A stretch of 64,000 bases of DNA from assembly GCA_905178155.1 (NCBI GenBank), contig CAJINV010000004.1, positions 1,713,929-1,777,928 of the forward strand, written 5' to 3'. How positions within the stretch are numbered: position 1 is the stretch's first letter; each line of letters opens with the position of its first letter. Source of the stretch: Amoebophrya sp. A120 (Eukaryota; Protista; Dinoflagellata). This document shows, in pieces, positions 1,202 through 62,600 of this stretch. Made by a program: the position numbers and the translations under genes. The notes under the pieces were generated by a model. The model ran no database searches, was not told where the DNA came from, and was given only the letters and a program-made list of their open reading frames with translations.

Positions 1202-1352
1202 GTCTGGCATGACAGCAAAAATCTGTCATGCGCAGATAGTACGTGAAAACGCCCCTTAATGGACCCTACGATGCATGCCAAGCATGACAAACGCAATCAT
1301 CTTGCATGTTGCGCATCACAAATTTACACTAGCAGCGTTTTTTTCTTGGATA
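1202..1352. mobile_element. Truncated introner, family D (left end missing)
   Basis: Reverse complement of part of the 33918-34126 element; ends ttttttcttggata. Confidence 0.75.
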
Positions 1353-1419
1353 CACCGGTTGCTACGGGCGGTTGGTGCCGGACGACCGGTTTGACACCTT
1401 TTTGCTCACTTCCTGCCGA

Positions 1420-1688
1420 TATCAACTGCAAAAATCCCTGGATGTCTGGAAGAGTCGGGGCTTCTCATGCACATTTTGCATGACCCGTGAGGTCTGTGAT
1501 GCTGGGGCTAGCATCCATTACAGATTTTTTGAGAGCGTCTTGATGCTAATTACGCATTAGAAATGTTGCCCTCTCTGCGTGCCAAGAGCTGACTCCTCTT
1601 GCTGCTCATGCAACACAGACATTTTTAGAATCCGCAGACAGCATTACAAGTTCCACTCTTCCAGACCCAGGCACTTTTTCAATCCATA
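1420..1688. mobile_element. Introner family A (TIR tatcaaatgcaaaaatgtctgggtctggaag)
   Basis: TIRs; DR gccga/gccga; frame restored. Confidence 0.9.
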
Positions 1689-1852
1689 GCCGACGCGCCC
1701 TGCCGAAGACGCAGGTGTGCCTGACCAAACTGGAACACGGGCAGTACTGTCGCGCACCCATGATCTACACGGGCAAAGCCCGGACGCCGGCGGAGTGCGC
1801 GCTGCACATCCGGAAACAGGGGAGTAAGTTCGTGTACGGAGATTTCGGGCCG

Positions 1853-2098
1853 TATGGCGTTCTCAAATGTCATATTTTCAACTGTTAAGTACATGATTTG
1901 TCATGCAAAAACAAAATCACATATCAGAATCGACACGATCAAGCTGCTTCGCATGACAGATTCTCGAAGAGCCAAACAGGTTGAGAATCTGCGCCAAATC
2001 TGTCATGCAAGACGCGCAAGATCACCCCTTTGACTTTTGCCATTCTTGCATTACAAATTCATGTAACAGTTGTTCTTGTAGCATTTGAGAACGCCATA
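1853..2098. mobile_element. Introner family C (TIR tatggcgttctcaaatg)
   Basis: TIRs; DR ggccg/ggccg. Confidence 0.92.
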
Positions 2099-2200
2099 GG
2101 CCGGACGCCGGAGGTTGTTACGAACTGTTCGACGACGGCGGTGAAGGGGTTTTGACGTCATTGTCCACAAGAACCACATTATTCGGTGGAGGTGGTGTTG

Positions 2201-2317
2201 TATCCAGGAAAAACACCCAGCGGCCCCATCCAATTTGTCATGCAAAACATGCATAAACTCCTGCGTTTGATGTCATGCAGAAAATGGATGGGGATCATGG
2301 GTGTTTTTTCATGGATA
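2201..2317. mobile_element. Introner family D (short subfamily)
   Basis: tatccaggaaaaacaccc/gggtgttttttcatggata; DR decayed; GT-AG register 2197-2318. Confidence 0.8.
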
Positions 2318-2401
2318 GGGTACTAGCACAAATTCCTACTCCGCGTCTCTCTTCGACGAGCCGGATGAATTCGCGGACTCTTCGTGCACTCTAGGCTTAG
2401 C

Positions 2402-2524
2402 TATCCTGTGCAAAAGTATCGTACCCGTATTGCAGGCATGCATTACAACTTTTTTTCTCAAGGTAAATCTGCATTACAAATTTTATTTCTCATGCTGAGG
2501 AATGCGATACTTTTGCAGTTCATA
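2402..2524. mobile_element. Introner family B (TIR tatcctgtgcaaaagtatcg)
   Basis: DR ttagc/ttggc. Confidence 0.88.
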
Positions 2525-2568: not shown

Positions 2569-2804
2569 TGTAGGCATGCAGATCAAATCACCATGTAGAG
2601 CTCATGACACGCTGCAAACACGATGCAAATCCCACCTGAAATCCACGATCTGAAATCACATCCAAGAGCGAAGAGCGATGCAAATCGAGAGATGATGATG
2701 TGATGATGATGATGAACTTGTTCCTTTCCCCAATGCAACAGTAACGTGGACATACTAGCAGTAGGGTGCACACCGCCCTACATGGTGGTTAGTGTGTTCT
2801 AACA
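2569..2804 (+). repeat. 5' LTR
   Basis: tgtaggcatg...ttctaaca; first 182 bp identical to the 3' LTR. Confidence 0.95.
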
Positions 2805-2822
2805 ATCTTGAGCCCTGTGCTT
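2805..2822 (+). promoter_or_regulatory. Putative primer-binding site (internal/half-tRNA type)
   Basis: atcttgagccctgtgc directly abuts the LTR; no TGG (CCA complement); tgagccctg resembles the complement of the tRNAiMet anticodon arm used by Ty5/copia-type elements. Confidence 0.45.
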
Positions 2823-9004: not shown

Positions 9005-9237
9005 GACTGCGAATTCGAATCCAAGTATCGAAGGAAAAAAGAAAACCATACACAATCGTATCTATCAGTCTGCTCCATTTTTTTTTTTTGGAAAACGAAA
9101 TAAACGTCACCAGTTCTTGCATGCAGTAGGTACTACACATCACAGCATGGTGGAAGATTGATCCGTCAACATGCACGGCAACTGTCTTCCTGTAGCTCTT
9201 GCCAAACGAGGACCTGCAAAATGGTGTTTGACTGATT

Positions 9238-11465
9238 GTGATTAGTGATCATGTTTGTCTTTTTTCTCACCTCCATACCAGCGTGATTTCTTTCGCCTGG
9301 AACACTTTTTGCTGGCTGGTTTTCGTCTTGCTTTTCGGAATTCCGTTGTGGTTGTTCCTGTTTTGCTGCTTCCTGTTTTGTATGAAATGTAAAAATGTCT
9401 GGGTCTGGAAGAATGCGCGATTTGTCATGCAGCTTTTCCATGACCCATGAGGTCTGGAATGCAGGACATAGCATGACAGATTCTGCGCGATCTTTCCCAT
9501 GCCAATCCTGCATGAGAAACTGCCTCCCGACTTGGTCAAAACTGGACGACTTTTGGTAATCATGCAATACAGATTTTTGCATGCTTCAGATTTAGCATGA
9601 CAAGTTGGATTCTTCCAGACCCAGACATTTTTACAGTTGATATTTTGCTGCGACCCACAGTACAGCATCAACGCGTATTTTAACGAGCCGCCGGACGGGT
9701 ACTTCCTGCGAAACAGCGACTCGAAATATTGAGAGAAAAAATCCCCCCTCCCCATATCGAAAAGGTATGTTTCCGAAAATTTGTCTTGCTGATTTGGGAC
9801 AACAAATCAACACGTCTGTCTTGCAAGAAGACAACCCCGCAGGCTCTGCCGCATTATGCAGGCGGTTCGTGATGCTGCTGGGCCTACAGCATAGTCGTTT
9901 CTCATGCTAAGCGCTGCGCCTAGGCCAAAAGCTCTCTACTCAGGCTCGGCAGGAGCCTGCAGCCCTCTACTGCAAGACAGGCCTGATTTGTATACGCATA
10001 CCCAGCATCAGAAACTCCCTTTTGATATGCGGAGGGGGGATTTTTCCTTTTGATACGAAAGCTGCGGTGGCGAAGGAACTACAGGCGGAAGCGAATCTGT
10101 ACGCTCCGGGGCGGGCGCTGCCGCGGGCAGTGGTGCAAGCAGGGGCTGCATCAGGACAACTAGATGGTGGAGGTGGTGTAGCTGGATCGGTAGGAGTACA
10201 ACTAGGACCGCAGCCAATTTTACCCGCACCTGGAGCTGCAAGAATTCCACCCCAAGACCAGGCCGCGGCCGCGGCATCGCAAGCAGGCCAAAAAGTTCAG
10301 ACAAACGCCACGAACTACTTTACAGCAAGTGCGGTGGAGAATTACGGTTACATGGAGAGTACAAATGCACCGGGAGCAGGTCTTGTTCCATACGCCGCGC
10401 CGCCAGACTCCTCTTTTGTCGCAACCGGAACTTCTGGCACAGCAGCTGCTTCATCAGCAGGCACGGTGAAGACCGCGCTTCAGCAAAGCCGTGCAGTGGT
10501 GGAAGAAGTGCCGCAAAAGCAATCGGCGTCCTCCACCGCATCGGGAACAACTACTGTTGGCACCCGTTCGGTGCCGGCGATACAGCAAATGCCAGTACTG
10601 CAAGAAGACCAAACTGCCCTCGTTTCTGGGCGGACCGATCAAAACGGTGGACTGGCGGGTACGGCCGCGGTAGCAGCAACAGGGAACAATTATATCAAAC
10701 CATCGGGGGCAGGAGCAACAACGAGTAGTGCCGACCCGACTGTCGTGACGAGGAAAACGCGGCGGGCTCTTATCAAATGCAAATATGTCTGGTTCTGGAA
10801 GAATGCAGATTTTTGTCATGCTGTTTTTGCATGACACAGAAAGTCTGTCATGGAAGCCCTAGGAGCATCACAGATCTCGAGAACGTTCCGCAATGCAACC
10901 CCCCTTTTTGGTGACAGAAAACGGAAACCTTTTGCTGCCTATGCATGAGAGATTTGCGCGCGTTGTGGAATTCGCATCACAAATTTTTTGGATCCTTCCA
11001 GACCCAGACATTTTTGCATTTGATAGCTCGCGGAGTAGAAGAACAAGTCCTAACCGGACCTCCATCGGCCAGATTAGGCGAGAATGATGAAAATTATGGA
11101 ACAAATGATCAGCAACAACCGAATGGAAACGTCTTCTTCAGCACGGATGACGGGCAAGCATATTTCTCAAGCGACCAGGTTCGATATGAAGATGGACTGC
11201 AACAGTATCGTACTCGTATAAATGCATATACAAATTTCCTCAGCATGAGAAATAAAGTTTGTATTGCGGATTTGCTATAAGAAAAAGATTTGTAATGCAA
11301 GACTTGCATTTCTACGAGTGCGATACTTCTGCACAGGATATTCGATCCTCCGAGCAGCAAATAAGCGGAGCAGAAGATGACGGATCTGCATCACCGCGGT
11401 TGGCGGGCACGCCGACCGAAGATACGCTGGTACAGGATACGCGAGGGAAAGTTACTCCTTCCTAG
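9238..11465 (+). CDS. Hypothetical protein with one hydrophobic (TM-like) segment and a low-complexity tail; 4 introner introns; start uncertain
   Basis: Frame joins across elements 9381, 9727, 10771 and 11185: FLFC|CDPQY..DSK|AAVAKE..TRRA|RGVEEQ..QVR|SSEQQ..TPS*. Confidence 0.65.
9381..9642. mobile_element. Introner family A
   Basis: DR ttttg/ttttg. Confidence 0.92.
9727..10055. mobile_element. Introner, single-copy family G
   Basis: aaaaatcccccctcc/ggaggggggattttt TIR; DR cgaaa/cgaaa. Confidence 0.85.
10771..11025. mobile_element. Introner family A
   Basis: DR gctct/gctcg. Confidence 0.9.
11185..11340. mobile_element. Introner family B (reverse orientation)
   Basis: DR ttcga/ttcga. Confidence 0.88.
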
Positions 11466-12427: not shown

Positions 12428-15400
12428 ATGATCTCCTCACCGGGTCCACATGGAGGACTACTACAACCTGTTGGTGTCCTGGTGCGGCAGAGCAGTGCGT
12501 CATCTTCAAGTGCTTATCCTGTGCAAAAGTATCGTACTCGTAGTAATCGCAATTATGCATTACAAATCTACTTGTTAAGGTAAATCCGCATTACAAATTT
12601 AATATTGTAATGCTGCGCCAATTTGTATTGCGATTTATACTAGTACGATGCTTTTGCAATGCATAGTGCTTCGTCTAGTACAACGTCCGGCAGATGTTGG
12701 CCGTGCAGAGGACGCGATGTCGGCGCGACCTGTCGTCGAGTGAAGGTGTCGTCGACATCAAGTGTGTCTCATCATCTACACGTGCGAAAAAGATCCTCTA
12801 CGCCGGTCCCGCACGACGACCAAGGACACGCAATAAACAGAAGAGCTGCAGCCTTGTTCCGATGTTTCCCCAGCAGATCTTCTGCTTCGCAAGTCCCACG
12901 TCTTCTAGTCGTGGTGGACGAGGACATATTTCTTTCAGATGGGCACCTCCGACAAGGATTGTTTCTTCACAACCTGATGAAAATAAATCCTGTGCTCGGG
13001 AGGTGTACCACAAATATCAATTTTTCATCGCAGAAGCGTTTTTTCTCGAAGAAAAACCGGAAAGAGGACAAGCGATGGCTTTCTCGGGTGGACAACCCGG
13101 TGAAGTATGCCGAGGAGCATATCAAATGCAAAAATGTCTGGATCTGGAAGGATGCAACTTGTGATGCTGAATTTGAATTCGACAAAAATCTGTATTGCGA
13201 GGACAGCAAAAGAGGTCCAGTTTTTGCCACGGCAAGAGGGCATTTCTCATGCGGTATAGGCATCAGGAAGAGGAAGCCCTCACAAAATCTGTGATGCTAG
13301 AGCCTGCGTCACAGACTTCAGGAGTAATGCAAAGTGTGCATGACAGACCTTGCATCCGTCCAGACCCAGACAGTTTTGCATTTGATAGAGCAGTACGGCG
13401 AGCAAAGCCGCTTACAAGACAAGATCGAGGGCCACATGTTCGTGCCCGAGACGCTGTCCGTGCAGCAGCTCGTGCTCCACTGCAGCAAGCTGATGCAGGC
13501 CCGGGATAAGCACACCCCGCAGTTGCTGGACCAGTACGCGAGCCGGTGCTTCGCTCTGTCCAGCATCTTTCAAGCCAAGGACTTGTCTCTCTTGCTAAAC
13601 TGTTTCGCCAAGGCAAGGTATTCGCCCTGGATCCGGGTCTTGAAGCCGGAATTCCGGAGAACGCAAAAAGAAATCCAACGACAGAAGCTGCCCGGAACGA
13701 ACTCGCCCTTGTTGGCAAGGTACGCGGGAGAAGGGTCCGGGGGGTTCAATCCGCTGCAGGGGAATAGAGACGGCATGCTGGAACAAGCAGGGAACAAAAT
13801 AACTACCGACGGCAGCAAGGATAAGGATCAACATCAAGGTCTTCTGCGGGAAGATGAAAATGAAAATGAAGACGGCTACGGGGCGAGCCTGCCAAGTGAC
13901 TATCTGGAGGGCAGACCGTGTTCGCTCGAGCAGAAAAAAAGTGCACACAGCAACACCGGACGAGTTCTTGGCGTCGAAGCAGCTGCTTGTTCCGCCACAT
14001 CGTCCTCTGCCCTAGAACCACCTCTTCCAGACTCCTCGTTAACAACACCCCAACATGACGTCGGTGAAATCGAAAACTCGCAGCACGCGCGAACCAGAAC
14101 GAACCTGCAATCCCTGAATAATTCCACGATCGACTTTGACAAGGACACTCTCCCGCACCCGCTCCTGCTTGCCATCGCCCCGCGGGTGAAACGCGTGTTG
14201 CGCAAAGCCGTGGCGCAGGACTTGGCCCTGTTTTGCAACGCATACGCCAAATTGCAAATCCGCTGCCTGTACGTAGTGCAGAAGTGATATCGCACTACTA
14301 GGTAGTGAAAAAGAAAACTCGAACTGCATGATTTACAAACTTGCGCAGCAGCATATAATGATAAATGTAAATCAAATTTGTCTTGCCGATTTACATTTAG
14401 TGTGGAAAGGCAAAGGAGCTTTTCTGTCATAATGCTTAACGACCGCAAGTAGTACGAGTGCGACACTTTTGCATAGGATAGCCTGCCGGTCTTTAAGTGG
14501 TTGTCAGCGGAGATCCCGCACAAACTGACGTTTTTTGATATGGCGTCCTCAAATGTTACACTCAGTCACTGCTGTTACATGAAGTTGGAAAAATGCAAGA
14601 ACTGATTCCTGTGGTATAAAATGAAAGCGGGGCGCCGGCGCTTGCGCGTCATGCTCCACAGATGATTTGGCAAGGATTTCAATGCTTGCTGGCGCATGAG
14701 AAACTTTTCATGCGAAGTGGAAGCAAGTTGTAGCTGGATCGATCGTGTGAAGAGTCGCCTTAGTTGTAATTTTGCATGACAAATTCAAATCACGTGTCTT
14801 ATCAGCGACTAAGTGATGTAGCGTTCTTTGAAAGTGCCATATTTGAACCGCAACACCTCGCCATGGTTGCGTCGGCCTTCGCGAACTTGCAGATCCCCGA
14901 TAGACTGTTGATGGGCGAGATTCGGACGGAGATCCTGCAACGCCGGCCCGAAGATTTCGAGATGTCGCAGATCGTCATTCTGGCGAGTGCGTATGCGAAG
15001 GTGAAAGGGAATTTCTACGCGCAGAAAGAAATCATGCTGATGCGGACGAGAAATAGTTTGTTAAGGTTGAACAAACTAGGTAGTGTTGGACGGCATAATT
15101 CCCAGGGACTGGGACACGGACAGCAGCAACAACTTCTGCAAGATTCAGGAAGCTGCACGGCTGCCAGCGGTTCTGATTTACTGCGAACGACGAGGTTGGA
15201 ACTATTAAATGAGGACCCGGCTACGAAGGACTACGGTGCTGAGGACGAGATAATTGCGCAGGGAAATCATGATGTAGTTGACCCTAAAAATGCGAATGAT
15301 TTTCCTTCTGCAAATCCGAAAAGTAGTAGTTATACCAGTGCAGGAGATCTGACAGACTCTTCCTCCGAGGAACAGGATCTCTTCCGTTTCGCCGCCGAGT

Positions 15401-18400: not shown

Positions 18401-18965
18401 TTTATACGAGTGCGATACTTTTGCAATGCATATGCTGCAGCCGAAGACAAACCGACTTGTGAAGCAGCTGGACGGCAGAAGCGTATTGAAGTTGGTGATC
18501 GGACTGGCAAAATTGTACCCGAAAAATGACGCAAAGGATTTTACATCACCTTTGGACGCTGTAGAAGTAGTTGCGAGAAGTTGTAGACGGCACGGGACGA
18601 GGACCCCAACTACAACAACTTCGAATTATGACAGCAGTGGTTCATCATCCTCCCCTACCGCCTCCTCGGAGGAAGACGAAATGATCCGGCGGTTGCTACT
18701 GCTCGTCGTGAAACCGGTGTTGCAAAGCACGCCCTTGCACCTCGAGACGGAACAAGTCGCGCTGAACAAGGCTCTTTTTACGTTGGGGCACTTCGACGAA
18801 ATGTTTGGACTTTTCGAGGAGATGAATTCTAGCAATTCCTATCGCCCTCGCGACTACAATAGGGTGGCACAGGAACACCAGAGGCCGCGAGAGGTGCAGA
18901 CCGGTAGTAGCGAGCAGAATGGTGCGCTGCGGTATGGCCAGCACGTGGTCACGTCACATGCGTAG
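12428..18965 (+). CDS. Helical-repeat (RAP/FASTK-associated, HPR/OPR-like) putative organellar RNA-binding protein; 10 introner introns
   Basis: Continuous frame after removing 10 elements; repeated motifs AKDLSLLLNCFAK, AQDLALFCNAYAKL, EPQHLAMVASAFANL, EMSQIVILASAYAKV, SLPDLCNILHALGKL, GRSVLKLVIGLAKL; R/S-rich N-terminus. Confidence 0.7.
12515..12665. mobile_element. Introner family B
   Basis: DR gtgct/gtgct. Confidence 0.9.
13120..13387. mobile_element. Introner family A (reverse orientation)
   Basis: DR gagca/gagca. Confidence 0.92.
14270..14480. mobile_element. Introner family B-like (diverged)
   Basis: DR gcctg/gcctg. Confidence 0.82.
14539..14841. mobile_element. Introner family C-like (diverged)
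   Basis: DR tttga/tttga. Confidence 0.82.
15442..15681. mobile_element. Introner family A-like (diverged)
   Basis: DR actgt/actgc. Confidence 0.8.
16849..17100. mobile_element. Introner family A
   Basis: DR ttcct/atcct. Confidence 0.85.
17484..17628. mobile_element. Introner family B (reverse)
   Basis: DR ggtgc/ggtgc; GT-AG register 17480-17629. Confidence 0.92.
17690..17971. mobile_element. Introner family F (TIR tatcctgagtaaaaacgtcccc)
   Basis: DR tgcat/tgcag. Confidence 0.85.
18053..18261. mobile_element. Introner family D
   Basis: gaaaaaactgtttcactgt TIR; DR caaga/caaga. Confidence 0.9.
18299..18432. mobile_element. Introner family B
   Basis: DR tgctg/tgctg. Confidence 0.9.
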
Positions 18966-24788: not shown

Positions 24789-25078
24789 TATGCATTGCAA
24801 CTATGTCTCCGCCTGGATCTCGTCTCTGTGATGCTATTTTCTACAATAAACAGAGTCTGCATATATTGCACGAAGCGGTTTGGGGAGCTTTTTCGTCGTG
24901 CTGGAGGTCGGTTTGGCATGCGATTTCCAAACGACTCGGCAACAAGCTTGCAAAAACTTGCCATGCATTTATTATCTGCAGCAGACCGGTTTCTCATGCA
25001 AGAATTAGCCATACACACGCGCACAGGTCCGCTACTTCTACTTTCCAGACGCAGACAAAGACATATTTGCAGCGCATA
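24789..25078. mobile_element. Family A-like element; host gene not resolved
   Basis: tatgcattgcaactatgtct/agacatatttgcagcgcata; DR decayed. Confidence 0.6.
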
Positions 25079-45609: not shown

Positions 45610-48600
45610 ATGGCCGTTCCACTTTTCGTCCGCTACCTGTACTCCCTCATTCGCAATGGGATGTGGGAGGATGCGGCTGTCGCCCGGACGGACCCTGTGT
45701 TTCAGAACTTCAAAGATATTCTGTTGCTGAATTATAGCAACACCAGCCAAGAAGTAGTCGCTGGGATATCAAAAAAGCCTACAACACCAGCACCAGCAGG
45801 AGGACCCCAGCAAGGACCACCACCACGTGCTGTCGCTGCCAGCTATTTGTTTACCAATGCTGAGGAACTTGTCGCCCCCTACTTGACCTGGCGCTTTTCG
45901 TACCTGGTTTGCGGGTCGTTTTTCGGGCTTTGGAAAATCATTCTGGACTCGCCCATACCCGCGTTTGGGGGCAAGAGCTACGAGGAGCTTAAGCAGGACT
46001 ACAAAAAGTTTCTCCAGGAACAATTGCCTGTCGAAGTGTCGCTGGATGAGTTCGACAGTCTGCTGGAAGTGTTAACCTACGAGGATTTGGGGTTCTTCAT
46101 CGTCTCAATTGTATCGGTGTTCTTCACGATTGTATCTGTCTTGTTGCTGCTTTCGCTGTTTCGGACACTGCCGCGCGCGGTGGGGCCGGCGCGAAGCGGT
46201 GCTGTTGCTGTAGTTTCTGATGCTAATTTATTTCGAAGAAGCGCGACAACGCGCCTCGGGACGACGAGGACGAGCTCGGCTTCATTCTCTCCATATCAAA
46301 TGCAAATATGTCTGCTGGGTCTGGAAGGTTCGAACTTGTGATGCTAACTTTGGACTCTAAAAATATCTGTATTGCATGACCAGCAAGAGGAGTGTAGTTT
46401 GTGCTACGCGGGGAGGGCATTTGTCATGCGAAGTAGGCATCAGGAAGCCCTCTGAAAATCTGTGATGCTAGGTCGTGCATTACAGACATCCTGCTGGGCC
46501 ATGCAAAATATGCATGGCAAACCCGGCAACATTCCAGACCCAGACACTTTTGCATTTGATACACCAACGGCCTACGCAAACCCACACGGCGCAGCAGCTG
46601 TACCACAGGTGGACGAAGCCGTAACAGTTGTTCTTGGGAAGCCGCAAATTTTTTTACATGGCGGGGGAAACAAGCAAGTGCAAGGAGGGCCGCCGAGGAC
46701 GTCAGGGGCAAATAAAGAGGTGGGAACATCATTAAACATTCAAGACATTCTTATGGAAGCGTCAGGATCGAAATCGTGAAAGTTGAAATAGTTTGTGATG
46801 CATAAAATGGATACCAGTTGTAACCCAGCTTCCAAGTGGCGCATGACAAATTTGGGTAGAGCCGAAAGGCAGTTTGTCATGCTGTCTGAGTAACGAAGAC
46901 GCCTTTTGTCATGCTACTTTAGCAGCTCAGTTTCTACCTCTCAACAGGCTTACAATCTGCCTAGCTTGCCTACTCTGCAAGACAGGCACTTCGTGCGCTG
47001 CATTTTATGCATGACAAATCATTTCAACTTTGTCGATTTCGATTCTGACACTTCCATAATTCTCCAGGAAGAAGCCGAGCGATTGAGGGCGAAGCAACAG
47101 AAGTTCTTCGTGAGTCAGTCGCCAGCTGCGCATATCCTGTGCAAAAGTATCGTACTTGTAGTAATTGCAGTCATGCATTACAAACTTTTTTCCAAAGGTA
47201 AATCCGCATGACAAATTTTATTTCCCATGCTGAGGAAATTTGTAATGCATTTATACGAGTGCGATACTTTTGCGATGCATAGCGCAGCGCGCCGAGGACA
47301 AAGTTGCTCTGGAGGGTCACCATAACCTGCCCCCACCAGGACCTCCTAGTCGTGAAAATGAAAATGACATTTATTTCTCGTCCGCAGTAGATGGGCGAGG
47401 AGCCGCACAACTAGACCGCCAGCCTCTAACCCCCGCAGTTCCCCCCGGCGTGACTATTCCCAACCTGCACTCGGCTCCACCGGATAAAAAGAATGTTAAA
47501 CCTGCCACTACGTCGTGGTCGCAGGCTTCTCTAGCGGGCGGAAGTAGTGGTCTTCTAGATCCGTACAGACCTACCCCGGAGCAGCAATATGAGTACAACG
47601 CAGTGGACTTCGATTTGTCAGACTACAACACCGCAACGTCATCAAATGTCGCAAGGCATCTTCAAACGGCGCATCATGCAAGAGCAAATGGCTCTACTAC
47701 AACTCACGGTCAAGATGAGCCCGACGTTCTCCGCGCTTTGCCGGAAGCTAAGGAAAAAACCAAATTGCTTTTCCACACCATCGCTTACTCCCGCAAAACC
47801 GTGGCACTCGCTTGGCTGATTGCGTTTGCTCCCCCGTTTCTATTCCTCCTCATCTACCCGATTCGGTCGGCAGTAGATTGGGACCAAGTCGTTGCGGACG
47901 TGTGCGTTTACAGTGTGAAAATGGTCTTCGACAGCCCAGGGACGGAAGTGCAAAACACCTTGCGACTCGTCAGCGAGGCCGGGTTACTGGATGCCGACAC
48001 AACTCTGTTAACCGACGTGGACAAGCTCCCGGAGTGGTGCAGCCTGCAAAACCGGGAGTGGCACGAAAAATTCTACAGCAACGCGCTCCGCTGCGCCTGG
48101 GTCGTGGAGGACCGGTGTCGCGACATCTATTGTGCCGCCGCCGCATTCCCCGCGAACGAAGTGAAAAAAGTACCGGAATGCTTGACGGACTGTCTCTCCT
48201 TTGCCATCGCCAAAGTGGGCGTCGCCACCGTCCGCCGACAGACACTGAACATTTTTGCCACTTGTTCCGACCGCAACGCGCCATTCACTTTGGGGATCAA
48301 ACCTATGTAATCGGAATAAATCTATCGCAATACTACATGCAAATCGCCTACGCCTGCTATATCAATATACTTACACTGTCATCTAATTTTTATCAAGTTG
48401 ACAAGGCAGTGCACATTGTAATCAATGCTGAATCATCTGTAGAAAAAAGTTATGTCATGCCAGATGCCATTGAAGAAATACATACGAGTATCGGATAGTA
48501 CTTTTGCAGTGGATCCTTCCCCCAAAGTTACGATTTTCATCGTCCACCAGCACACCGAGGGAACTGTTACCGCCGCGCGAACAAGGCCCTTCTGTTTCTG

Positions 48601-51592
48601 GTGAAGGAGCAAAAGATCAGCAAAGAAGTCGCGGTGCTTCATCGGCACTACACACGAAGGCGGAACAAGCTCCACTGGGATTTTTGCCTGGCCAGAAAAC
48701 AGCAACTGTAGAGGCTCCTGTAGATGACGCACCAGAACTACTGGAGCACAAGAACGGCAGAGGAGGTGCTGACCATGGCGAGATTGTCCTCGCGGCTTTG
48801 CAAGATGAACTCAAGCTGCAACCTCGAGGATTTTCCTATCAACAAGCTTCTCCTGCTACTTCTTCCGGGTCAAGAATTTCTGGAAGGCTTCAAGATCACG
48901 CTTCTTTGACGGAGAACTTCCCTATGCAGCAGGAGGAGTCTACTTTTCACGCCGCCCTCTTAGCACGCCGACCACACAGCAGGCCGCCGCGACGTGCTCT
49001 CACGACTGTGTCCACCACTCTGGCCCTGGCGGACTACTTTTCCACCGTCATATCGACAGTAAATTTCCTGTACACGTACAAATGCTGTCTCTGCATGAAA
49101 AAATTTGCCTTCAATCCTAGTGTAGCATGACAAGTTGTACACTGCAAGTTAGCAAAATGTGTCATGCATTTTGTACATGTACAGGAAATTTTAATTTACA
49201 TTGCATACGTCACTCACCACTTTTACGACATTTTCATTTACACCAACCGACAACTGATTCTCACCGGCAGCGCCGCTGCCACCTTTGCCTCGGTCCAGGC
49301 CGAGTACGTGGTCGGCTTACTCGTCGCGATCGCGTCCAGTAGGGTCCTCGTGGCGTCCGCTCTGTCACTGCTGGGCGGTCTGGCGGAGGCGTTGCTGAAC
49401 CAGAAGGCGCTTTTTCCCTTGTCTCAGCACGGCGGCTGGATTCTCATTTTGACTCTGTGCGAAGCGCTCCCGGTATACGCCGCATTGCTGGCGCTGTTGC
49501 AGCAATTAATCGGAGACTACGTGTTCTCCCTGGTGTGCCTGCTGTTCTTAGCGTACATCTATCCACTGCAAATTTATATTGCCTGGATGTAGAAAACAAA
49601 GGAAACTTGTCATGGTGCTGAAGTACAACTTCGCAGATGAGGAGCAGATTCAATCATCGCAGTTGGCAAGCTCAAGCAAGCATGACGAGTTTTTTCTCGG
49701 CGCCAGTTCCTCGCTGTGTGAGTATTTGATATGAAAACATCCACTTTCGTCGCGAGTAAGCACTTACATCAAACAAGTCCGAGTGATGTTGTCGGACAGC
49801 ATGCGGTTGTACAAACGCTAGATCCACATTAGACACACATAATGTCCAGTTCCAAGAAAGCCAGACATAAATATTTGCAATGTCGATGACACCGCGACGG
49901 GAATCCGCACCGGTTGGAGACTGCTGACTCTGCGGAAGATGAATTTCGACTTGAGTAGCCTGAGTGCGTCCTCTATCAAGGAGAAAAGACCCATCCCCAC
50001 GATCCAATTTGTCATGCACAACATGCATGAAGTCCAGTGTTTGCCATGCAAAAAATGGATGGGGATGGTTTTTTTTCTAGGGATATCCTCGGGCTTTGGG
50101 CTTCTTCGTGGAGCGGACGCGGAGGAGGCGAACCTGCCCAAGGTGGACGGACAGGCTCTGCTACCCCCGGCGGAGGACGGCGGAAGGCAAGAAGGCACTC
50201 CCCCTGGAGCCGGGGCGGCAACAAGTACAAAGCAGACGGCGAGCAGTGTGCCAAGAACATCGGCAGTTAGTGCCTCCGCAAACGTGGACCACAACGATAC
50301 AAAGAGAATCAGCACCGCGCAGCTTGTTCGAGATGAACAGGAACCACACAGCTTCCAGAGGGCACAACCTCGGCCAGCGGCATTCCGGCAAGGCAGCGGC
50401 AACCTCGAGTCCTTTAACGAGCACCTCGAATATGCAAATACAGATAATTCCAATTTCCCGCACACGTACAGAATGCATGAAAGTTAATGAATTCTGGCAG
50501 CTATAATTTAAGAAGAGCCTGCATTCAGAATTGTAAAAATGCTGAGCACTACTAGTAGTACTAGTAGCCCTTTGGCTAAACGTAGCCCTAGTAACTAGGG
50601 CTAGCGCCGTACTAGCTCAAAGGAAAGCTTTTGTCAACATCATGCGGGAACGAGCGCAAATCGTACGTGTAGTCTGGAGGGAAAAATGAATTTTCTTTGG
50701 ACATCAAGGAAAAGCGGGATGTGATGTATCGTTACATCTGGCTCGATTACGGGATGAAGTTTCTCTGTCTAGCCCTTCTGGTTTTCACTCTCTTCCTATG
50801 AGAGTGCACAAGTCCCGACCCTCATCCAACTCATTTGTTTCCACGAGCCGTTGCCTCTTGTTTGCACTGCTTGCATGACCAGTTCCGGAAGGCGAAACAC
50901 GACTAGAATCGGGCATCAATTTGTCATGCAAAAGCTGCATTCTTGCCAGGGCTTGTGTTGCTGTGAATGCCATCCAAATGAGGGGGAGGGGGAGTTGTGC
51001 TCTCTCATACTTCCACTGGTGCTCGTCGCGCGGCTACACGGCGCTGCAAGCCGAAATCTTAAAGGAATTGCTGGAGCCGATCACGTTGATAGGATTGATT
51101 GTTGATGTGGTCACGAAAAAGATCATCACCGCTGTCGCCGGGACGGATCTGATCTTGTTATCAACTGCAAATTATGTAATCTGGGTCTGGAAACTTGTGA
51201 TGCGCGTCGGACGAGCATGAGGACATTTGTCGCAATTTTTGCTGGAGCAAATGGCAAACTCATTTGGAGCATTTGGGTACAACATACATGACAGACTTTG
51301 GAGTTCTTGTTTTCATGCTGGCCGAGCATGGCAAACCGTGCACTACTCTTCCAGACCACCCAAACATATAATTTGCAATCCATACTGATACGGCTACTGC
51401 AAGACCGAGCTTTGGTCCTTGCGGAACCGCAACAGGCTTGCCGGGTTAGACGTGTCGGAGTTCGCGGTCAGCGACAAGCAGATGCAGGTTTCTTTGGAGG
51501 AAATGGGGCTTTTGGTAGGGGCAACGGAACTCGACGCGTTTTTAGCTGGGCCGGGGGGCGGTGGAGTAGAGAGCGGAATAAAGCGGGCGTAA
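45610..51592 (+). CDS. Multi-pass membrane protein of unknown function with a Cys-rich loop; 10 introner introns
   Basis: Several hydrophobic segments (FFIVSIVSVFFTIVSVLLLL, LAWLIAFAPPFLFLLIY, GGWILILTLCEALPVYAALLALLQQ, FLCLALLVFTLF); frame restored at each element. Confidence 0.7.
46294..46561. mobile_element. Introner family A (reverse)
   Basis: DR ctcca/cacca. Confidence 0.9.
46752..47058. mobile_element. Introner family E (TIR tatggaagcgtcaggatc, ~58 bp)
   Basis: DR attct/attct. Confidence 0.92.
47133..47281. mobile_element. Introner family B
   Basis: DR gcgca/gcgca. Confidence 0.92.
48304..48515. mobile_element. Degenerate B-like introner
   Basis: Right end tacttttgcagtggat; DR decayed; frame restored. 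Confidence 0.55.
49051..49207. mobile_element. Introner, single-copy family H
   Basis: aaatttcctgtaca/tgtacaggaaattt TIR; DR cgtca/cgtca. Confidence 0.85.
49560..49888. mobile_element. Introner family A-like (degenerate)
   Basis: DR acatc/acacc. Confidence 0.7.
49974..50085. mobile_element. Introner family D (short subfamily), in-frame and stop-free
   Basis: DR tcctc/tcctc; homologous to 2201-2317. Confidence 0.88.
50431..50706. mobile_element. Degenerate introner
   Basis: Starts tatgcaaat; approximate right end; frame resumes KRDVMYRYIWLDYG. Confidence 0.45.
50797..51009. mobile_element. Introner family I (TIR tatgagagtgcacaa)
   Basis: DR cttcc/cttcc. Confidence 0.88.
51159..51384. mobile_element. 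Introner family A-like
   Basis: DR cttgt/ctgat. Confidence 0.78.
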
Positions 51593-52554: not shown

Positions 52555-55049
52555 ATGCTTCTTGTACTTGTTCCACCTTTTACATCGTGGCGAGGACGGC
52601 CACGCCTACGAGCTCAGCCACCGCTCGTGCTAGCCGCTCTGAGGGTCATCGTCGCGCACCTCGGATGTCATCTAGTATCGCCTTCCCACGGCCATCTCCG
52701 AGGTCAAAACGGAATCAGATCGCGAGCAGGAGAACAAGAAGACACGACCGCGGCTGGGGAAGACTCGACTCAGTTGATGACGAATGATCCACACGAGGAC
52801 ACGATACAGACACAGGCGTTTTTGGAGCTGGACACGTCGGGAGAGGGCCGTTCTACTTCCATGCTGGAGGAGGGAGAACAAGACCAAGATGATCTACTTC
52901 TCTACTCGGGAAAAACGTCAACAACAAGAACAGCATCAGCAGCCCCCGCCGCGAGCTCGACCCTGTTGGAGATGGAAGTCGGGACCAGAAGTATGGAAGC
53001 GTCAGGATCCAAATCGACAAAGTTGAAATAGAAATTATTTGTCATGCATAAAATGCAACCCACAAAGTGCCTGTCTTGCAGCGTAGGCAAGGGAGGCAGA
53101 TTGTAAGCCTGCTGAGGGATAGAAATAGAGCTGCTAAAGTAGTATGACAAAAGGCGCCTTCCTTACCCAAACAGCATTACAAACTGGATTTAGGCACCAC
53201 CAAAATTTGTCATGCGCCACTTACAAACTGGGTTCCAACTCGCATCCATTTTGTGCATGACAAATCATTTCAACTTTGTCGATTTCAAACCTGACACTTC
53301 CATAAGAAGCAAGCTACCAGAAGGTGGAGCCTTCTCGTTCCGAGTATGCAATGCAAAAGCATCGTACTAGTATAAATTGCATTACAAATTAGCCCAGCAT
53401 TACAAATTTGATTTGTAATGCGGATTTGCCTTGAGAAAGAGATTTGTAATGCATGAATGCAATTACTACGAGTGCGATACTTTTGCACAGGATACAGAGA
53501 GCCGCTGCGGCCGCACCAAGTGGGACTGATCGGAGGTAATCACTCGTTGCGTGGTGTCAAAACGATCAACGATCTGGATTTCTACGACGAGTATCGCGGT
53601 CACAAAATCGGGCACCTCGAGACTGTGGTCGGCCTCTTCACACAGTGTCACAAGCTGCCGGCAACCAGTCCCAATTCCTGTCCCGATACGAGCATCGTGT
53701 TCCTGTTGGGGGATAGCTCTCTGGACAACAAGCACTGGCTGTATCCCACGAAAAACGACAAAGGAGAGCCAGACAAAGCCAGCCTGGCCGACGGCTCATT
53801 CACCGCCCCGGCTGTCAACGGCTACGAGAAGGTTGTGGGTGCGAGCGGGCGGATGGTCAAAGACGTCTGCTACTGGCTCAACCGGAAGTCCGCAGAATCT
53901 TCGAAATGGTTCAAGCAGAACGAGGAGGACGTGCTGGTGAAAGAGCACCCGTACCCACACCTCCTCTTCGTGAACTCTGCCGTCGAAGAGTCGACGCTTT
54001 CCAGCCGCGCATCGGGGCTGCTTCCCCAGGACAAGTTTGTTTCGAACCACCTCAAGCCGCAGGATATTCTCTTGGTCTCCGTGGGGCACAATGACATGGC
54101 GTTTCTCCACGTGCAGCAAGCGGCGCGGGTCTATGCAAGAAAAAAACTTTGTATAGTGTAACTCTGAAATGCAGAACATGCAAGAACAGAGTTACGCCTG
54201 TCATGCCAGATAACCATGAAGTCCTCTTTTCGTGTGTGTTTTCCCTTACAAGTCACGCATGACCGGATTTCTCTGAGATGTAGAGCAAATTTGTCATTAC
54301 ACTTACGCTAACCAAAGAAGGTTACACTAACACAGTTTTTTTCTTGGATAAGGTCCTGCAAGAGGGCACGACGGATGAAAAGCTGACCCAGTTGGCGGTC
54401 GAAAACTTTTCCCATATTTACAAGGAGGACACGGAGCGGTACATCAACAGTATTCTCGGGGACTCGACGTGCAAGATGGTGGTGGTGTGCATGCTCTACC
54501 ACCTGGATGAGAATGACGAAGCATTTTCGTGGTGGGAAAGGGGGTTCCAAGCGCTGGGCCTCATTGGCAACCCGGAGAACAAGCGGCGCATGAAGGTGGT
54601 GCAGCACGCGCTTTTCGAACACGCGTTGAAGCAGCTGCAAATCCCGAACGCGGAGAAAGTGGTTCCCCTGGAGCTGTCGCGGGCACTGGACGGGACGAAC
54701 TCGCTGATGTACGAACAACGTGTTGAGTATGGCGTTCTCAAATGTTACGTTCTCAACTGTTAATACATGATTTGTCATGCAAAACTACAATCTATCAGAA
54801 TCTGAATCGGCACGGTCAAGCTGCTTCGCATGACAGATTCTTGAAGGGCCAAACAGGCTGAGAAACTGTTCTTCCAAATCTTCCATGCGAGACGCGCAAG
54901 GTCACCCCGTCCACTTTTTTCATTCTTGCGTCACAAATTCATGTAACAGTTGAGAATGTAACAGTTGAGAGCGCCATATGGAGCCCAGTGTCCTGGGGGG
55001 CGAAAAACTGGCGGACTTGATTCTGGACACCATCAAGGAAAACTTGTAA
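52555..55049 (+). CDS. SGNH/GDSL-hydrolase-like protein; 4 introner introns
   Basis: Block I IVFLLGDSSLDN, block II NSAVEESTL, block III LVSVGHND, C-terminal VEPSVLGGEKLADLIL in the last exon (54979-55049). Confidence 0.75.
52992..53304. mobile_element. Introner family E (opposite orientation to the 46752 copy)
   Basis: DR agaag/agaag. Confidence 0.92.
53345..53494. mobile_element. Introner family B (reverse)
   Basis: DR ccgag/cagag. Confidence 0.9.
54132..54350. mobile_element. Introner family D
   Basis: DR gggtc/aggtc; GT-AG register 54129-54352. Confidence 0.88.
54728..54978. mobile_element. Introner family C
   Basis: DR ttgag/tggag; alignable with 1853-2098. Confidence 0.92.
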
Positions 55050-56619: not shown

Positions 56620-59600
56620 ATGGTGGTCCACCTCCAGCAGGCCCCGCCTGTGATGAATAAGCTGCGGGTGCGTCGCAGCACCGACCACGCAGAGTTCGTA
56701 TCCTGTGGAAAAATATCGTACTCGTATAAATGCATTACAAATTTCCTCAGCATAAGAAATAAAATTTGTAATGCTGATTTGCCTTAGCAAAAAGATTTTT
56801 AATGCATGATTGCAATACGAGTACGATACTTTTGCACAGGATACTTCGATTTTGACGGCGAAAACGAAGAGATCCCGACCGAGTACCACGACCACCCTAT
56901 TGTCGTGTCTCTACGCATTGCAAAATTAAAATTATCGTACCGAGTACAAATTGCATGACAAATTTTCTCAAGAACAACAATGTTTATGTTGCAACTTGTC
57001 ATGCTAGATTACTTATGCACCGAAACAACCAAAATATAAGACAGACAGATCTGTAATGCTGATGGATGACTGCGATTAGAAGTACTACGAGCGCGATGTA
57101 ATATACTTTCGCACAGCATAGTCTCAGACATCCAACACGAACTCCGCTTCGTCCTCCTACGCAGAGCCGGTACTGTACACGAGCGGGCTACAACAGCAAA
57201 AAGGGACCACCACTGCGAACAAAAGTGCCACCTCGAATCAACAGGTAGTTAAAAGCAGCTACAATGTATCGAACAGGATGGAAATGCTGATGAACCCACC
57301 CAGCTGCACATCATCAGCGACTCAGCAACCTACAAGAACCCTTCCGCCGAGCTTTCTCCCCAACAAAAACAACAGTGGCATCGCGTTGCTCCGGAAAAAT
57401 CAACACCAGGGAGGTGGTGGCGGGAGTACTAGTGTCTACAACCAGCGTTCGGCAGCTCCATCAAGAGCTGCAGGAGGAGGAGTTGCAGGAGCAACCCGCG
57501 TATGCTGTGCAAAAGTATCGACGTACTCGTGTAAATGCATTACAAATTTCCTCAGCATGAGAAATAAAATTTGTAATGGGGATTTGCCTTTAAGAAAATG
57601 ACTTGTAATGCAAGACTTGCATTTATAAATATGAGTACGATACTTTTGCACCGGATACCGTGCGCGCAGCGCCAGCGTGACGACGCACTATACCCGCGGC
57701 GGTGTTGGCGGTGTAGCAGCAGCAACGACCGCTCCAGTGACAGAGGCCATCAATCGGGCGCTACAATTCGGGCATAGTGTTAGTAACGATGATTCCGACG
57801 TATTTTTAAACACGAGCTACGACAACGACTCCTTAGCTTCGAGGTCGACCAATTTTCAGCCAATGGCCCCGCCTTTCGTGCCATCTTCGACAAGTAAAAA
57901 CCCAAGGAATCCACCGCCCGTAGTTCACCAGTCTTCAACGGCATCGCTGCATCGAGGAAATTTTCTGCTGAGACATCCCACCGCGGGCAGTGGTGGCGCG
58001 CCACCGCGGGCAATGAGCGCAACGAACCGCAGATTTGCGACGCGGCGTGGAACAAATTTGGGAGCGGTGAGCAATGTGCTGCTCGTTCCGATGCACGGAT
58101 ATCTTGTGCAAAAGTATCGTACTCGTATTGCAATCATGCATTACAAATTTTTTTCTCAAGGTAAATCCGCATTACAAATTTAATTTCTCATGCTGAGGAA
58201 ATAATGCATTTATACGAGGACGATACTATACTTTTGCAATGCATAACGGAAAAACGGTGACGACGCCAGAGAACTCGGTGAATACCTCGTTGCTGAGTGG
58301 TGCCAGTGGTAGTGGAATGGCAGGCCAACACGTGGTCGACCGAAATCGACGAAGCCCTCACAGTTGTGCAGCAGCTGCAACTCCAGGCGGAGTAGTCGAC
58401 CCGTTGCTCCAATCTGCTGCCGCGCTCGAGCAAGCTCTGTTGGAGAAGGAGCACGAAGCACAGGAACAGAACATTGAGTCCTCTCTGATTGCCAGGACGG
58501 TTTCGTTCTCCAAGTTAAGTGGTAAGCACGACGGAACAAATACCGGGACGAACACTACTTTTGCGAATCTTCATAATGCAACTTATGATTCGGCGGGGGC
58601 TTCGAGCAAAAATTCGGCTCTGCGTCATTCGTTTTCGGAGCAACACCTACAGCATCCCGCGCGCGCGTCTCCTGGTGCGGTCGACTCTGCAATGCAAGCA
58701 GTGTTGTCGAACTCTTCGCCGATCGAGAGAGATCATAATCAGGGACAAGGAGGAATGCCGGCGCGGCCGCAGTATTACGGAGCGCAGGAGCAGCATCATA
58801 GCTTCTATCAACACGAGAACTACACAGCTGCCGTCGCTGTAGGAGTACCACGGCAACACGCAGTCCCTTCGAATAGCAGTGGAATAAATGGTGCCATCAT
58901 GCGCATGCACTCTGTCCCGGTGCTGAGTCACTCACATCGAGGACATCCCATACAACTTGCGATGTCGCAACAGCAGGGCGGCCCTTTTTACCGGTTTCAT
59001 TCCGGAAGGCAAGGGCTGCAACCGACTTCTATGGGTTTTGCTCCCGCCTCCGAAGCGGGACATGAGCACCACGCCGCTCCGTACGCTTTTCCGGCCACGA
59101 CTTTTGCTTTTGCGGGGCATTTTTACCCACATCAACAGCTCAAGAGTTCGCAGCCTAACGCTAGTACAACAGGCAGCAACCCCTTCGAAACGCCGCAGCA
59201 AAGCATCATTCCGCCCCACGTGGCCAGTGCCGGACCGGTCCCGGTGCATTCTAAATTATCTGTGTCCCTTATGACAGTGCACAACTCCCCCTCCGCCTCA
59301 TTTGTATAGCATCAACGGCAATACAAGCGTCAGCAGGAGTGCGGGTTTAGCATGACAAATTTGCACAGGAGTGTAGTGCTATTTGGGCTACCAGAACTTG
59401 TCATGCATCATAGTGACAGGAGGCAAAGCGTAGATTTGGCACTTTGCATGAGAAATGAGAACGAGGGGGAGTTCTAGTGCACTCTCATATCCCTGCAAGA
59501 ATCGCAACAGACAGTCCTGGAGGCCGGCGCCGGAGCACAACATCAAGCACCACCGCCAGTGCCCACATCGCACTTTTCCACGCTTCAGTTCCAGCCAACG

Positions 59601-62600
59601 ATCGTCCCGCAACATCCGATTCCGAGGAGCCCGAGCGCGGCGGCTGCGGCGTCGTTGGCGTTTCCGATAGTTGTACAAGCAGCTGCACCAGTGGCGAGCA
59701 GAACTGGTACTGCGCCAAGAATGGTCGAGGACCACTCCGTAGTTCCTCCTGTCGTCGTGAAAACCCGGAATCACGATTTTTTGAACGGGAAGCCGATGCA
59801 GCTGCCCACCTCGACTACTGGAAACGTGGTTGTTGTATCGAGCGGAAGTAGAAAGGAGCGGGCTCGTGCTGTCGTGGTACCAGACCGGGGCCGCCAGGAG
59901 GATGATCAGAACGTCCCCGAAGAGCAGCTGGGGAATTCTAATTCTACTTTACCAGGCGGTGTAATCCATATTCCCACGAAGGAGCTGGCGGTGGTCGAAA
60001 GGTACTACTCGTCCGAAGCTGAAGCACGGGACGAGCAGGACGGAGAGCACGACCTGAATGGTGATCGTGAAGACGTAAACCAAAACGCAATAAAACGCGA
60101 TGCAGCGGATCATGATGATCGTGACGTGCTGCACAAAGATCCTCCCGGGCGTGTTGCTGAAAACAACAAGAAGATGAATTTGGCAGCTGTATTACTAGAG
60201 GAGGAGTTCAACAATACGGAGCATTGTCAGCTTGCTGGAGGAACACTACAACAACCGGAGGAACATCTACATCACCAAGGTCTTGCACAGCATCACACTA
60301 ATTTCGAAATCGCGCCACTGGATGAAAAAGAGAACAGCAAAGAGCTACGAGAAGCTGCAGGAACCTCCAGTAGTGTATCATCTGCTACATTTTCCAAAGC
60401 CGTCAAGCTCCCGGCCATGAACCAGTTCTGTTTCTATCAGGAACCGCCCCCATGTGTAGTAGCTGCATCTGGTACAACTTCTTCGGAGCACATCCATTTC
60501 TCGGACGAAATTGCGCTTCCACTGCCTGAAAATCTAGTACAACACGACGACTGCTCATCTTCATCCTCAATAGTTTCGAATTCCGAAATGGTGAAGAATA
60601 ACATACTGATCAGCATTCCAGTACCGGTAGAACTCGGCGACAGTGAGAAGGAAGAACAAGAAGGAGAATCTGAAGACCCCCGGCACGACCTCGGTGCAGA
60701 AGTGAGAGTAGAAGTTGTGCACGACATAGAAGAATGCAACAAAAACCTCCTGCGAAATCACAACGCGAGCGGGGTTGTAATGAAAAATGCTTCGTCTGTA
60801 AGCGGCGTAGCTGGAGGCGGTGGTGGGACAATTACTTCTTCCACACAGGGCCAATGCAACTACACGGCGACAGTGGGAGCCGTACAAGGAGACGAGACGG
60901 AAAAAGCTCCGTTTGCTGCACCAGCGCAACAGGATCGGCGCGAAGATGGTGGTATCGCCGGCAACTACAAGGGAAATAAGTTTGTCGTGGATGCAAATAA
61001 GAACAGCGGCACTTCCGACAAAAAACAAAATGCGATAAGGATCAATGCGCCTACTACAAGAACTCGAGTACAATCACCTACAACCGCCGCAGCTGGTTCC
61101 TGGACTCCCTCCGTCGCCAAAGAGCGGTTTGTCCCCCAACACACGCAGGACCAATACTTCGAGCAGACGCTCCGGTCGCCAACCTCGACGCCCAGCAATC
61201 TCACGCCGGGATTTGGAACGAACAGAAGTTCAAAAGCAAACCACTCCCGATATGGCGCTCTCAACTGTTACATTCTCAGCGGTTACATGGATTTGTGATG
61301 CAATAATGGCAACAGTTAAAGGGGCAAGCTTGCTGCTTTCGCGTCACAGATTTGGCACAGATTTAGATGCTGCTTAGCCTCTCGGAGATTTGTCACGCGA
61401 AGCAGCTTGGTCACGTGGCGGCTTAGGGTAGTCTCGCATGACAAATTCATGCAACAGTTGAGCTTGAGAATGTAACGTTTGAGAACTCCATACCCGAGCT
61501 GCTGGCGCTGTGCCTGCGTTTAATAATACTCGCAGCAGAAGAGCGAGCTCCGTGGACAAGCTCGTCGCGGATAGAGTAGAACAAGAAGATTTAGCACCAC
61601 CTACGCCAACATCAACTTCAGAACGAGAAATGAAGGCGACAACTACCAGCACAACTACAACGGAGAGAATAAAGCAGAATGCGAAGCCGGTTCTTGTGAA
61701 GATTAGTCTGAGCAAGCAGATCGAAAAATCCGCGAAACTGCGCAACCAATTGGAGCAGCAGTTGGTGGAAATTGAGCGGCTCAAGCAGAAGACGGAAGTA
61801 TCACATGAGTGAAAACTGGGCCCACAGCACCCCAGACCCAGAATCAAGATGGAACTATTGCAACACAAGTGCAGAAGTGTGACCCATCTGTGGTGTAGTT
61901 CAATTTAGCAAGGCCAGCCGCATCACAAAGCCGCTTTCTGTTTCTTATCTTCTTTACAGCATTACAAATGCCAAAAGAAACACGAAGATTGAAAATGCCA
62001 CTCATGGTCATGGCCATACTAGAGGGTGCGCCTAATTGAAAATGTTTCTGCAAGAATTGTAAATCTGCGCGCAACATGACAGCTCTGGGCTGCAGCTGGG
62101 GCAGACGTTTTTACCCCGGATACGGAGATTGCCGAGCAGAATTTGCGAAACGGGTGAAGCACTTAACGCGGGGAATGGCACAGTTGCGGAAGGATTTGTT
62201 GACTACGCCGAATCGGAAAAGGACCAATGAAAAATCTCTTGCGGAGCTGAATAGGCAGAAAAGGGATGCCGAAGAGGGGGTGGTGGCGGCTGTGAAGGAG
62301 TATTTTGTCCTGTGTGTACTTAGGTTTCTATTTCTTGCCCTACGCAATACTAACGTGGTTCTTAAAAGGATTTCTTCTTGGTCATTTCTGAAAAACTAAA
62401 ACTAAAAACAAATTGATCCTATTCCATTCATATAAATACAGGTGGGAGTCCCTGGAGCGTCGCGAGCGCGAAGTTCGGGCGCGACTGCAGAGCACGAGGA
62501 CCAAAGCTTTGTCTGCGATCAAGAAAGACCGGGAATCCAGTGTACAACAGGAGCGGCTGCAGCGTGGAATTATAACACCGGCGAACCACAATATGCTGTT

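Follow-up and report, generated by a model that had tools for sequence, protein, structure and literature searches.

The window analysed here is a 64,000-nt stretch of contig CAJINV010000004.1 from the dinoflagellate Amoebophrya sp. A120, and all positions below are counted over its whole length. It carries 74 complete inverted-repeat elements lodged within the genes of the locus, and contigs of probable RNA indicate that these elements are probably removed from transcripts without GT-AG ends. An earlier note on this DNA, made from the letters alone, had announced about 70 elements of 110-330 bp, and this was borne out: the 74 measure 112-329 bp (median 240, total 16.9 kb) and, together with their flanking repeats, make up 27% of the window. 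The set was obtained by three scans and manual curation; 59 of the 74 elements were seeded from the scans, one of which filtered on the flanking repeat, and the seed scan required TAT at the left end. The elements were also said to sit almost exclusively in coding sequence. Indeed, none of the 74 falls outside the gene spans and a Copia retrotransposon (16.9 kb of such DNA, for an exon total of about 23 kb), in a map where we drew the gene spans knowing the element positions.

The termini are TAT...ATA in 64 of the 74 elements and differ by one terminal base in the remaining 10; TAT stands at the left end in 70, and element positions 11-14 are A-rich. The two 5-nt flanks are identical at 0.859 of positions, against 0.25-0.31 at every other length from 2 to 10, with 39 perfect repeats and 22 with one mismatch (61/74 with at most one). 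Because one seed scan had filtered on the repeat, we repeated the search on terminal inverted repeats (TIRs) alone: of 35 candidates, 31 carried a 5-nt repeat (one mismatch at the most). In 20 shuffles, the number of candidates was 0-1, and none had a repeat. The repeat length in the window is thus 5 nt only, and the TAT...ATA ends and 5-bp direct repeats of the earlier description stand. The same picture comes from another assembly, in 146 loci (483 kb) yielded by a motif scan of metagenome contigs. In these loci, the 5-mer is perfect in 236 of 320 TIR-only candidates and has at most one mismatch in 279, TAT...ATA is found in 138 of 147 when no end motif is imposed, and 49 of the 74 window elements have relatives at 70% of their length or more. 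The motif of the family of about 150 bp had no match in viral contigs.

Two details of that description had to be amended. TIRs are present as announced, many of them being imperfect, with pairing at 7-19 of their first 20 bases. Repeated families do exist, in a number other than the nine or so proposed: clustering by blastn gives 7 multi-member clusters (31, 7, 5, 3, 2, 2 and 2 members, 52/74 in all) and 22 singletons, the largest cluster merging a type of about 150 bp with one of about 260 bp. Both orientations occur in 6 of the 7 clusters. The elements have the features of miniature inverted-repeat transposable elements (MITEs), being short, bounded by TIRs and devoid of coding capacity, with a target duplication shown by one empty site within a GGT repeat. 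A DNA-transposon origin as MITE-like, likely non-autonomous copies would account for these features.

Removal of each element together with 5 nt leaves open the frames of genes 12428-18965, 19753-22618, 52555-55049 and 45610-51592 (10, 7, 4 and 10 elements, 31 in total), in agreement with what had been claimed for the first two. These frames are broken when 0, 1, 3, 4, 6 or 7 additional nucleotides are removed and kept at 2 and 8; we retain 5 since RNA junctions and homolog alignment fix this value. The two best homologs, both named Amoebophrya sp. A120, share 93% and 47% identity with the spliced protein, and the closer one aligns without gap over junctions 54132 and 54728 of gene 52555-55049. 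Other plus-strand segments are open too once two GT-AG introns are added, the short ones being weak tests.

We then turned to contigs of four probable-RNA runs (X1-X4), all from one sample and labelled RNA by guess, which were aligned to 42600-62599. Among the 15 joints listed of 29, two fall at GT-AG introns and 13 at elements, and all 13 skip the element plus 5 nt. Contig pieces add junctions 59264/59490 and 16844/17102, the latter from an X1 contig skipping 16845-17101 (252+5 nt). The loss of element plus 5 nt that the earlier note had proposed to look for in transcripts is therefore seen at 15 of 15 singly read junctions. Sums over several elements, which are our own arithmetic from the contig piece tables, agree: a four-element X1 gap in gene 12428-18965 measures 790 nt (770+20), and gene 45610-51592 shows, beside three single joints, a five-element gap of 1178 nt (1153+25), one element of which was already counted. 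Two-sided support thus reaches 23 of the 74 elements, 15 singly and 8 more by sums. In gene 36716-44405, the last four elements are skipped as element plus 5 nt in all four runs; in gene 56620-62784, all seven are so skipped in X4 contigs and at least six also appear as joints in X3. Contigs that skip elements also skip the two GT-AG introns. The elements had been described as the introns of nearly every gene; canonical introns occur beside them. DNA-like X5 contigs retain the elements, for instance over 13360-16877 in one piece; joints from X5, which are element-to-element joins from other loci, were excluded. Neither of two raw RNA runs, X9 and X10, mapped to the exons.

The elements lack the GT/GC-AG ends of U2-type introns. 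Splicing at cryptic GT-AG sites was considered and rejected, since a G[TC]-AG reading is available for only 8 of the 74 over all registers from -2 to 7. As a separate observation, one X1 contig of low depth (3.4) has a joint between 47980 and 49864, the latter position lying within the 3' end of element 49560; this could reflect an aberrant splice or an assembly artefact.

Where within the repeat the cut falls can be read from repeats whose two 5-mers mismatch, as these bracket k, the number of left-copy bases that are kept. Among the 15 single junctions, k=4 fits 15, k=5 13, k=3 12 and k=0 7. A value of at least 4 is required by 42914, 49560 and 57501, a value of at most 4 by 43281 and 43477, and k=4 is allowed by 48304, 61799, 56699 and 16849, which makes nine informative joints in all. 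Piece ends agree at 51389 (k at least 4), 10765 (k at most 4, in the leftmost convention), 20370 and 46290 (k at least 2), and k of 2 or less would create a stop at 51159, the one site where the stop-codon test is informative. Under a uniform cut, the chance of such agreement is 0.003, or up to about 0.02 if k is taken as chosen afterwards. From the nine informative junctions we infer that the cut is probably fixed, lying 1 nt upstream of the 5' arm and 4 nt downstream of the 3' arm and giving an intron N-UAU...AUA-NNNN. The mRNA would then keep bases 1-4 of the left copy and base 5 of the right one, and the sequence preceding insertion would be restored for any target. With k=4, any base is found at +1, no 3' dinucleotide is preferred, GT-AG ends occur in 1 of the 74, and exon starts show no purine bias. 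Removal of the whole left or the whole right copy as a single rule was discarded, since it fits only 7 and 13 of the 15 joints. Of the earlier proposal that an element leaves with one copy of its target duplication, the length and the duplication remain, the departing nucleotides being most likely 1 from the left copy and 4 from the right.

Direct evidence for the duplication comes from the metagenome locus L144, which is orthologous to 57359-57725 with about 95% exon identity. The window has an empty site where L144 carries an element between two copies of the 5-mer, this site lying within a GGT repeat; an empty orthologous site with a single 5-mer was among the checks suggested beforehand. 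At 57501, the window has a 157-bp element and L144 (69-330) a 262-bp element of another family, both preceded by the same CCGCG. The two elements have a local score of 21, against 419 between the L144 element and window element 9381. The right repeat copy of the window is changed at base 4, a position that is intronic under the fitted cut. This single case of different families at one orthologous site could possibly reflect element replacement after excision, or an insertion hot spot.

Taken together, we favour, with a probability of about 0.6, the proposal that introner elements insert with a 5-bp duplication and are skipped as element plus 5 nt in a likely fixed register, the likely agent being a spliceosome guided by distance from the terminal stem. 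Non-autonomous copies would insert into coding DNA, duplicating 5 bp of target; in the transcript, pairing of the element ends would place the two junctions side by side and take over the role of U1 and of AG recognition. U+2 and A+3, found in 74 of the 74 elements, could serve as a remnant of a GUA donor; at the 3' end, the site would be a matter of distance (4 nt beyond the stem), with A-7 as a possible branch point. None of the 10 terminal variants affects +2, +3 or -7, while the mirror positions are hit (three mirror tests, with a product of 0.008), and two strand-called variants in metagenome loci agree with this asymmetry, which weakly suggests something other than a purely DNA-level constraint. 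The terminal stem is predicted in register in 47 of the 74. Within the spliceosome, G+1 is in contact with the 3' AG, and both of them with the branch A, so that their joint loss is coherent; in Giardia and Trichomonas, a short distance from branch point to acceptor is fixed. With k=4, +2 to +5 are taken by the first bases of the element, UAU(G/C), at the places that they have in the GUAUGU donor described in yeasts, Giardia and Trichomonas (10.1101/2022.06.08.495308). Moreover, A120 is reported to have U2, U4, U5 and U6 and 83 of 89 spliceosomal proteins, without U1 (PMC7789003). One could go further and assume a purely geometric code, in which a U1-less spliceosome would read nothing but U+2, A+3 and branch A-7, and cut 1 nt ahead of the stem and 4 nt beyond it. 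Any TAT...ATA element duplicating 5 bp would then be removed without scar, in either orientation and at any target, and families could be swapped at occupied sites without change to the mRNA. We entertain this version tentatively, at rather less than even odds.

Several points weigh against the spliceosomal proposal. Support from RNA consists of contigs from one sample labelled by guess, with 15 joints listed of 29; k=5 is excluded by just two of the listed joints, the nine informative ones belong to that one sample, and the position of the cut may vary between elements. In the prediction, 27 of the 74 elements do not fold in the exact register, and the poor-TIR elements 48304 and 61799 (7 of 20 bases pair) are still cut exactly. 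The asymmetry rests on 10 variants and may be biased by the left TAT demanded in the seed scan. There is neither AG, nor G+1, nor a branch-point consensus that would point to spliceosome chemistry. Finally, no transposase was found.

One would also wonder whether the skipping contigs could be DNA, from an element-free strain or after programmed DNA elimination, given that X1-X4 are RNA by guess and that the presence of elements differs in related strains, as L144 illustrates. This seems to us very improbable, since the two GT-AG introns are missing from the same contigs as well, their identity to the exons is 99-100% and no element that they cross is kept, while X5 retains the elements and the published A120 introns are supported by RNA-seq (PMC7789003). 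A cut sliding within the direct repeat from one element to the next, with k=4 as the overlap of a small sample, would be in line with the variable position that splice sites have with respect to the hairpin in PMC7789003 (inverted repeats 1-5 nt from splice sites), with automated calls that conflict between families in the rows consulted of the PMC12130899 Dataset, and with the small number of informative joints, just nine. Aligners, however, shift junctions within perfect repeats, which accounts for the published spread, and none of the nine contradicts k=4. Furthermore, the nine predominant non-canonical ends of A120 in Table S4 of PMC7789003 all start with G, C, A or T followed by T, and such N-T starts fit k=4 only; the A25 rows consulted start with TT. 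We thus consider a sliding cut improbable.

A more serious contender, unlikely in our opinion and yet to be reckoned with, is that the same elements are removed in the same register by a non-spliceosomal route or a separate hairpin-measuring nuclease and ligase, as has been suggested for the nonconventional introns of Euglena. That no dinucleotide is prescribed at +1 or at the 3' end, that one family is removed in both orientations and that U1 was not found in A120 (PMC7789003) would all suit such a route, as would the fixed spacers of Euglena, which put 3 nt ahead of the paired motif and 5-6 nt behind it, a similar geometry with a short 5' and a long 3' side (PMC12501133). On the other hand, U+2 and A+3 are conserved more on the transcribed 5' end than at the mirror positions, are common to the TT(A) starts of A25 and resemble a GUA donor. 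Apart from U1, the major spliceosome is reported as present, and elements with weak TIRs are cut exactly all the same. The elements do not carry the Euglena signature, N3CDG...CHGN5-6 with R opening the next exon; theirs is N-TAT...ATA-N4.

The system itself is already known: the hallmarks of the elements and the nearest proteins, named A120, match the A120 introners of PMC7789003 (Farhat et al. 2021), which supports the link with Amoebophrya that had been suggested. That paper describes 29,850 repeated introns, MITE-like and with a mean of about 240 nt, in many families. Their inverted repeats start with TAT, followed by 7 variable bases and an A-run, and their direct repeats are of 3-5 nt (5 bp in the legend of Fig. 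S19); no transposase is reported, removal is supported by RNA and the introns have N-T starts. In PMC12130899, the A120 families consulted (21 of 58 rows) are mostly TIR DNA elements of unknown superfamily, with duplications of 2-5 nt and mixed mechanisms, and according to PMC12005148 such introns are limited to part of the genus. The present analysis differs on the register, called variable or unknown in the text of PMC7789003, where one value fits all junctions here. Empty or replaced orthologous sites and the +2/+3/-7 asymmetry are absent from the portion of that text examined, and no statement of a fixed register or of element replacement in Amoebophrya was found in the literature searched, outside of which lay the figures of PMC7789003 and parts of the PMC12130899 supplement.

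A parallel can be drawn with class 12 of the introner-like elements of Polarella glacialis (10.1101/2020.10.14.339549), which also duplicate 5 nt, take their donor from the last duplicated base and the first base of the element and their acceptor from inside the downstream copy, and, for an NNAGG target, share the register fitted here. Class 12 nevertheless needs AG and G in the target and one orientation, whereas any target and both orientations serve here. Euglena nonconventional introns (PMC12501133, PMC11282704) share a proposed MITE-like origin, terminal pairing, fixed spacers and the lack of GT-AG; they differ by spacers of 3 and 5-6 nt, CAG/CTG motifs, a purine at the next exon start and the formation of circles, against 1 and 4 nt and TAT/ATA in the window. 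The introners of Micromonas and Aureococcus (PMC11282704, PMC7789003) are likewise non-autonomous TIR elements that duplicate their target and leave the coding sequence intact, but with canonical splice dinucleotides, one carried by the element and one drawn from the duplication.

What is added here is the probably fixed cut, the empty and replaced orthologous sites and a weak strand asymmetry. A fixed register would give sharp predictions for a splicing mechanism left open in 2021, concerning the location of the branch point or circle junction and the bases that matter. It would explain the dozens of end dinucleotides reported by aligners and, as a rule simple to apply, allow gene models to be corrected by the thousand. 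It would also show by what means transposon insertions can do no harm at all to coding sequence, whatever the target, and the replaced element suggests that intron sequences can turn over while their position persists.

As to the mobilising enzyme, the window was said to be devoid of an autonomous transposase, and we found none either. Long elements of the same TIRs enclosing a transposase, which the earlier note had proposed to look for, did not turn up: nine long candidates with TIRs and repeats (457-2632 bp) from the 483 kb of metagenome loci are nested pairs of ordinary elements or have no recognisable transposase among open reading frames judged by eye. Four elements of 630-1100 bp (L017:367-1470, L023:632-1465, L048:3862-4492 and L069:5024-5995) have family TIRs, perfect 5-bp repeats, unrelated filler and no transposase by eye, and could be deletion derivatives or contain captured sequence. 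According to PMC7789003, no transposase was found in A120 either, and PMC12130899 lists an A120 introner family with TIRs and Copia/Gypsy-like reading frames. The window contains an intact-looking Copia long terminal repeat (LTR) retrotransposon at 2569-9004, with LTRs of about 236 bp (TGT...ACA), a 5-bp duplication GACTG and a single 1809-aa reading frame with Pfam gag, protease barrel, SH3 and RVT_2 domains. It lies in coding sequence, and its removal with 5 nt joins 1333-2568 and 9005-11465 into an open frame of 545 aa. Since this Copia also makes 5-bp duplications, and an integrase of that duplication length is hence at hand, one could speculate that an integrase-like DDE protein may mobilise the elements.

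Features of the window (positions in nt; element coordinates in the fourth column)
Feature	Position	Strand	Elements	Remarks
5'-truncated copy from the 209-bp family of 33918, reduced to its 3' 151 nt	1202..1352			blastn 92% to 33918-34126; abuts GC-rich tandem repeats
4 elements, 5' part of Copia-split gene	1420..2524	+	1420-1688, 1853-2098, 2201-2317, 2402-2524	frame only
5 elements, 3' part of Copia-split gene	9026..11340	+	9026-9277, 9381-9642, 9727-10055, 10771-11025, 11185-11340	
Gene, 1430 aa predicted, 10 elements	12428..18965	+	12515-12665, 13120-13387, 14270-14480, 14539-14841, 15442-15681, 16849-17100, 17484-17628, 17690-17971, 18053-18261, 18299-18432	open frame
Gene, 394 aa predicted, 7 elements	19753..22618	+	20374-20647, 20747-20891, 20933-21172, 21247-21512, 21576-21852, 21914-22117, 22216-22455	open frame; X1 piece ends 20370
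Element, probably in minus-strand gene	24789..25078	-		host frame weakly tested
12 elements, membrane-protein-like gene(s), mixed with GT-AG introns	28739..35611	+	28739-29050, 29349-29591, 30067-30331, 30381-30697, 32872-33105, 33176-33333, 33373-33575, 33631-33884, 33918-34126, 34146-34429, 35014-35270, 35319-35611	open frames
Gene with 14 elements and GT-AG introns	36716..44405	+	37374-37536, 37596-37783, 37947-38134, 38643-38853, 38905-39200, 39538-39849, 39856-40120, 41304-41619, 41831-41979, 42063-42216, 42707-42867, 42914-43177, 43281-43429, 43477-43754	
Canonical GT-AG intron (control)	43823..44087	+		joint 43820-44086
Gene, about 1228 aa, 10 elements	45610..51592	+	46294-46561, 46752-47058, 47133-47281, 48304-48515, 49051-49207, 49560-49888, 49974-50085, 50431-50703, 50797-51009, 51159-51384	open frame
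Gene, 513 aa, weakly GDSL/SGNH-like, 4 elements	52555..55049	+	52992-53304, 53345-53494, 54132-54350, 54728-54978	
Gene with 7 elements and GT-AG intron 62300-62441	56620..62784	+	56699-56843, 56912-57120, 57501-57657, 58100-58245, 59270-59489, 61251-61492, 61799-62122	
Empty site, single GGTGG	57413..57417	+		in L144, 156-bp element flanked by two GGTGG copies

As to the host genes, none of 11 exons gave a Pfam name above threshold, and a homolog search with the longest exon of gene 12428-18965 returned nothing. In gene 52555-55049, where SGNH motifs had been claimed, the frame is sound and the label is weak, a sub-threshold Pfam match being seen in two homologs and none in the window exons. 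A weak match to MFS_1 (Pfam) covers 28519-28737, and the short exons at 28.5-30.7 kb test their host frames weakly. The X1 contig piece 10056-10765, in the Copia-split gene, ends at repeats on either side. Element 39856 sits in the right repeat of element 39538, where the fitted cut would leave a lone G as a 1-nt exon with the frame open. Further GT-AG introns are probable in element-bearing genes at 29097-29259, near 29779-29846 and at 39268-39468.

Other repeats lie around these genes. Two diverged copies of about 250 bp occupy an intergenic stretch at about 26440-26910, covered by X1 contigs with many differences, and represent another repeat family. By eye, a GC-rich stretch of 1.8 kb at about 30860-32720 lies between two copies of about 60 bp, apparently intronic or between exons of the membrane-protein gene. 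Also by eye, GC-rich tandem repeats with units of about 60 bp and of 20 bp fill 1-1150 and cut off element 1202-1352 and the first gene, and other repeated GC-rich DNA occupies the right end at 62900-64000.

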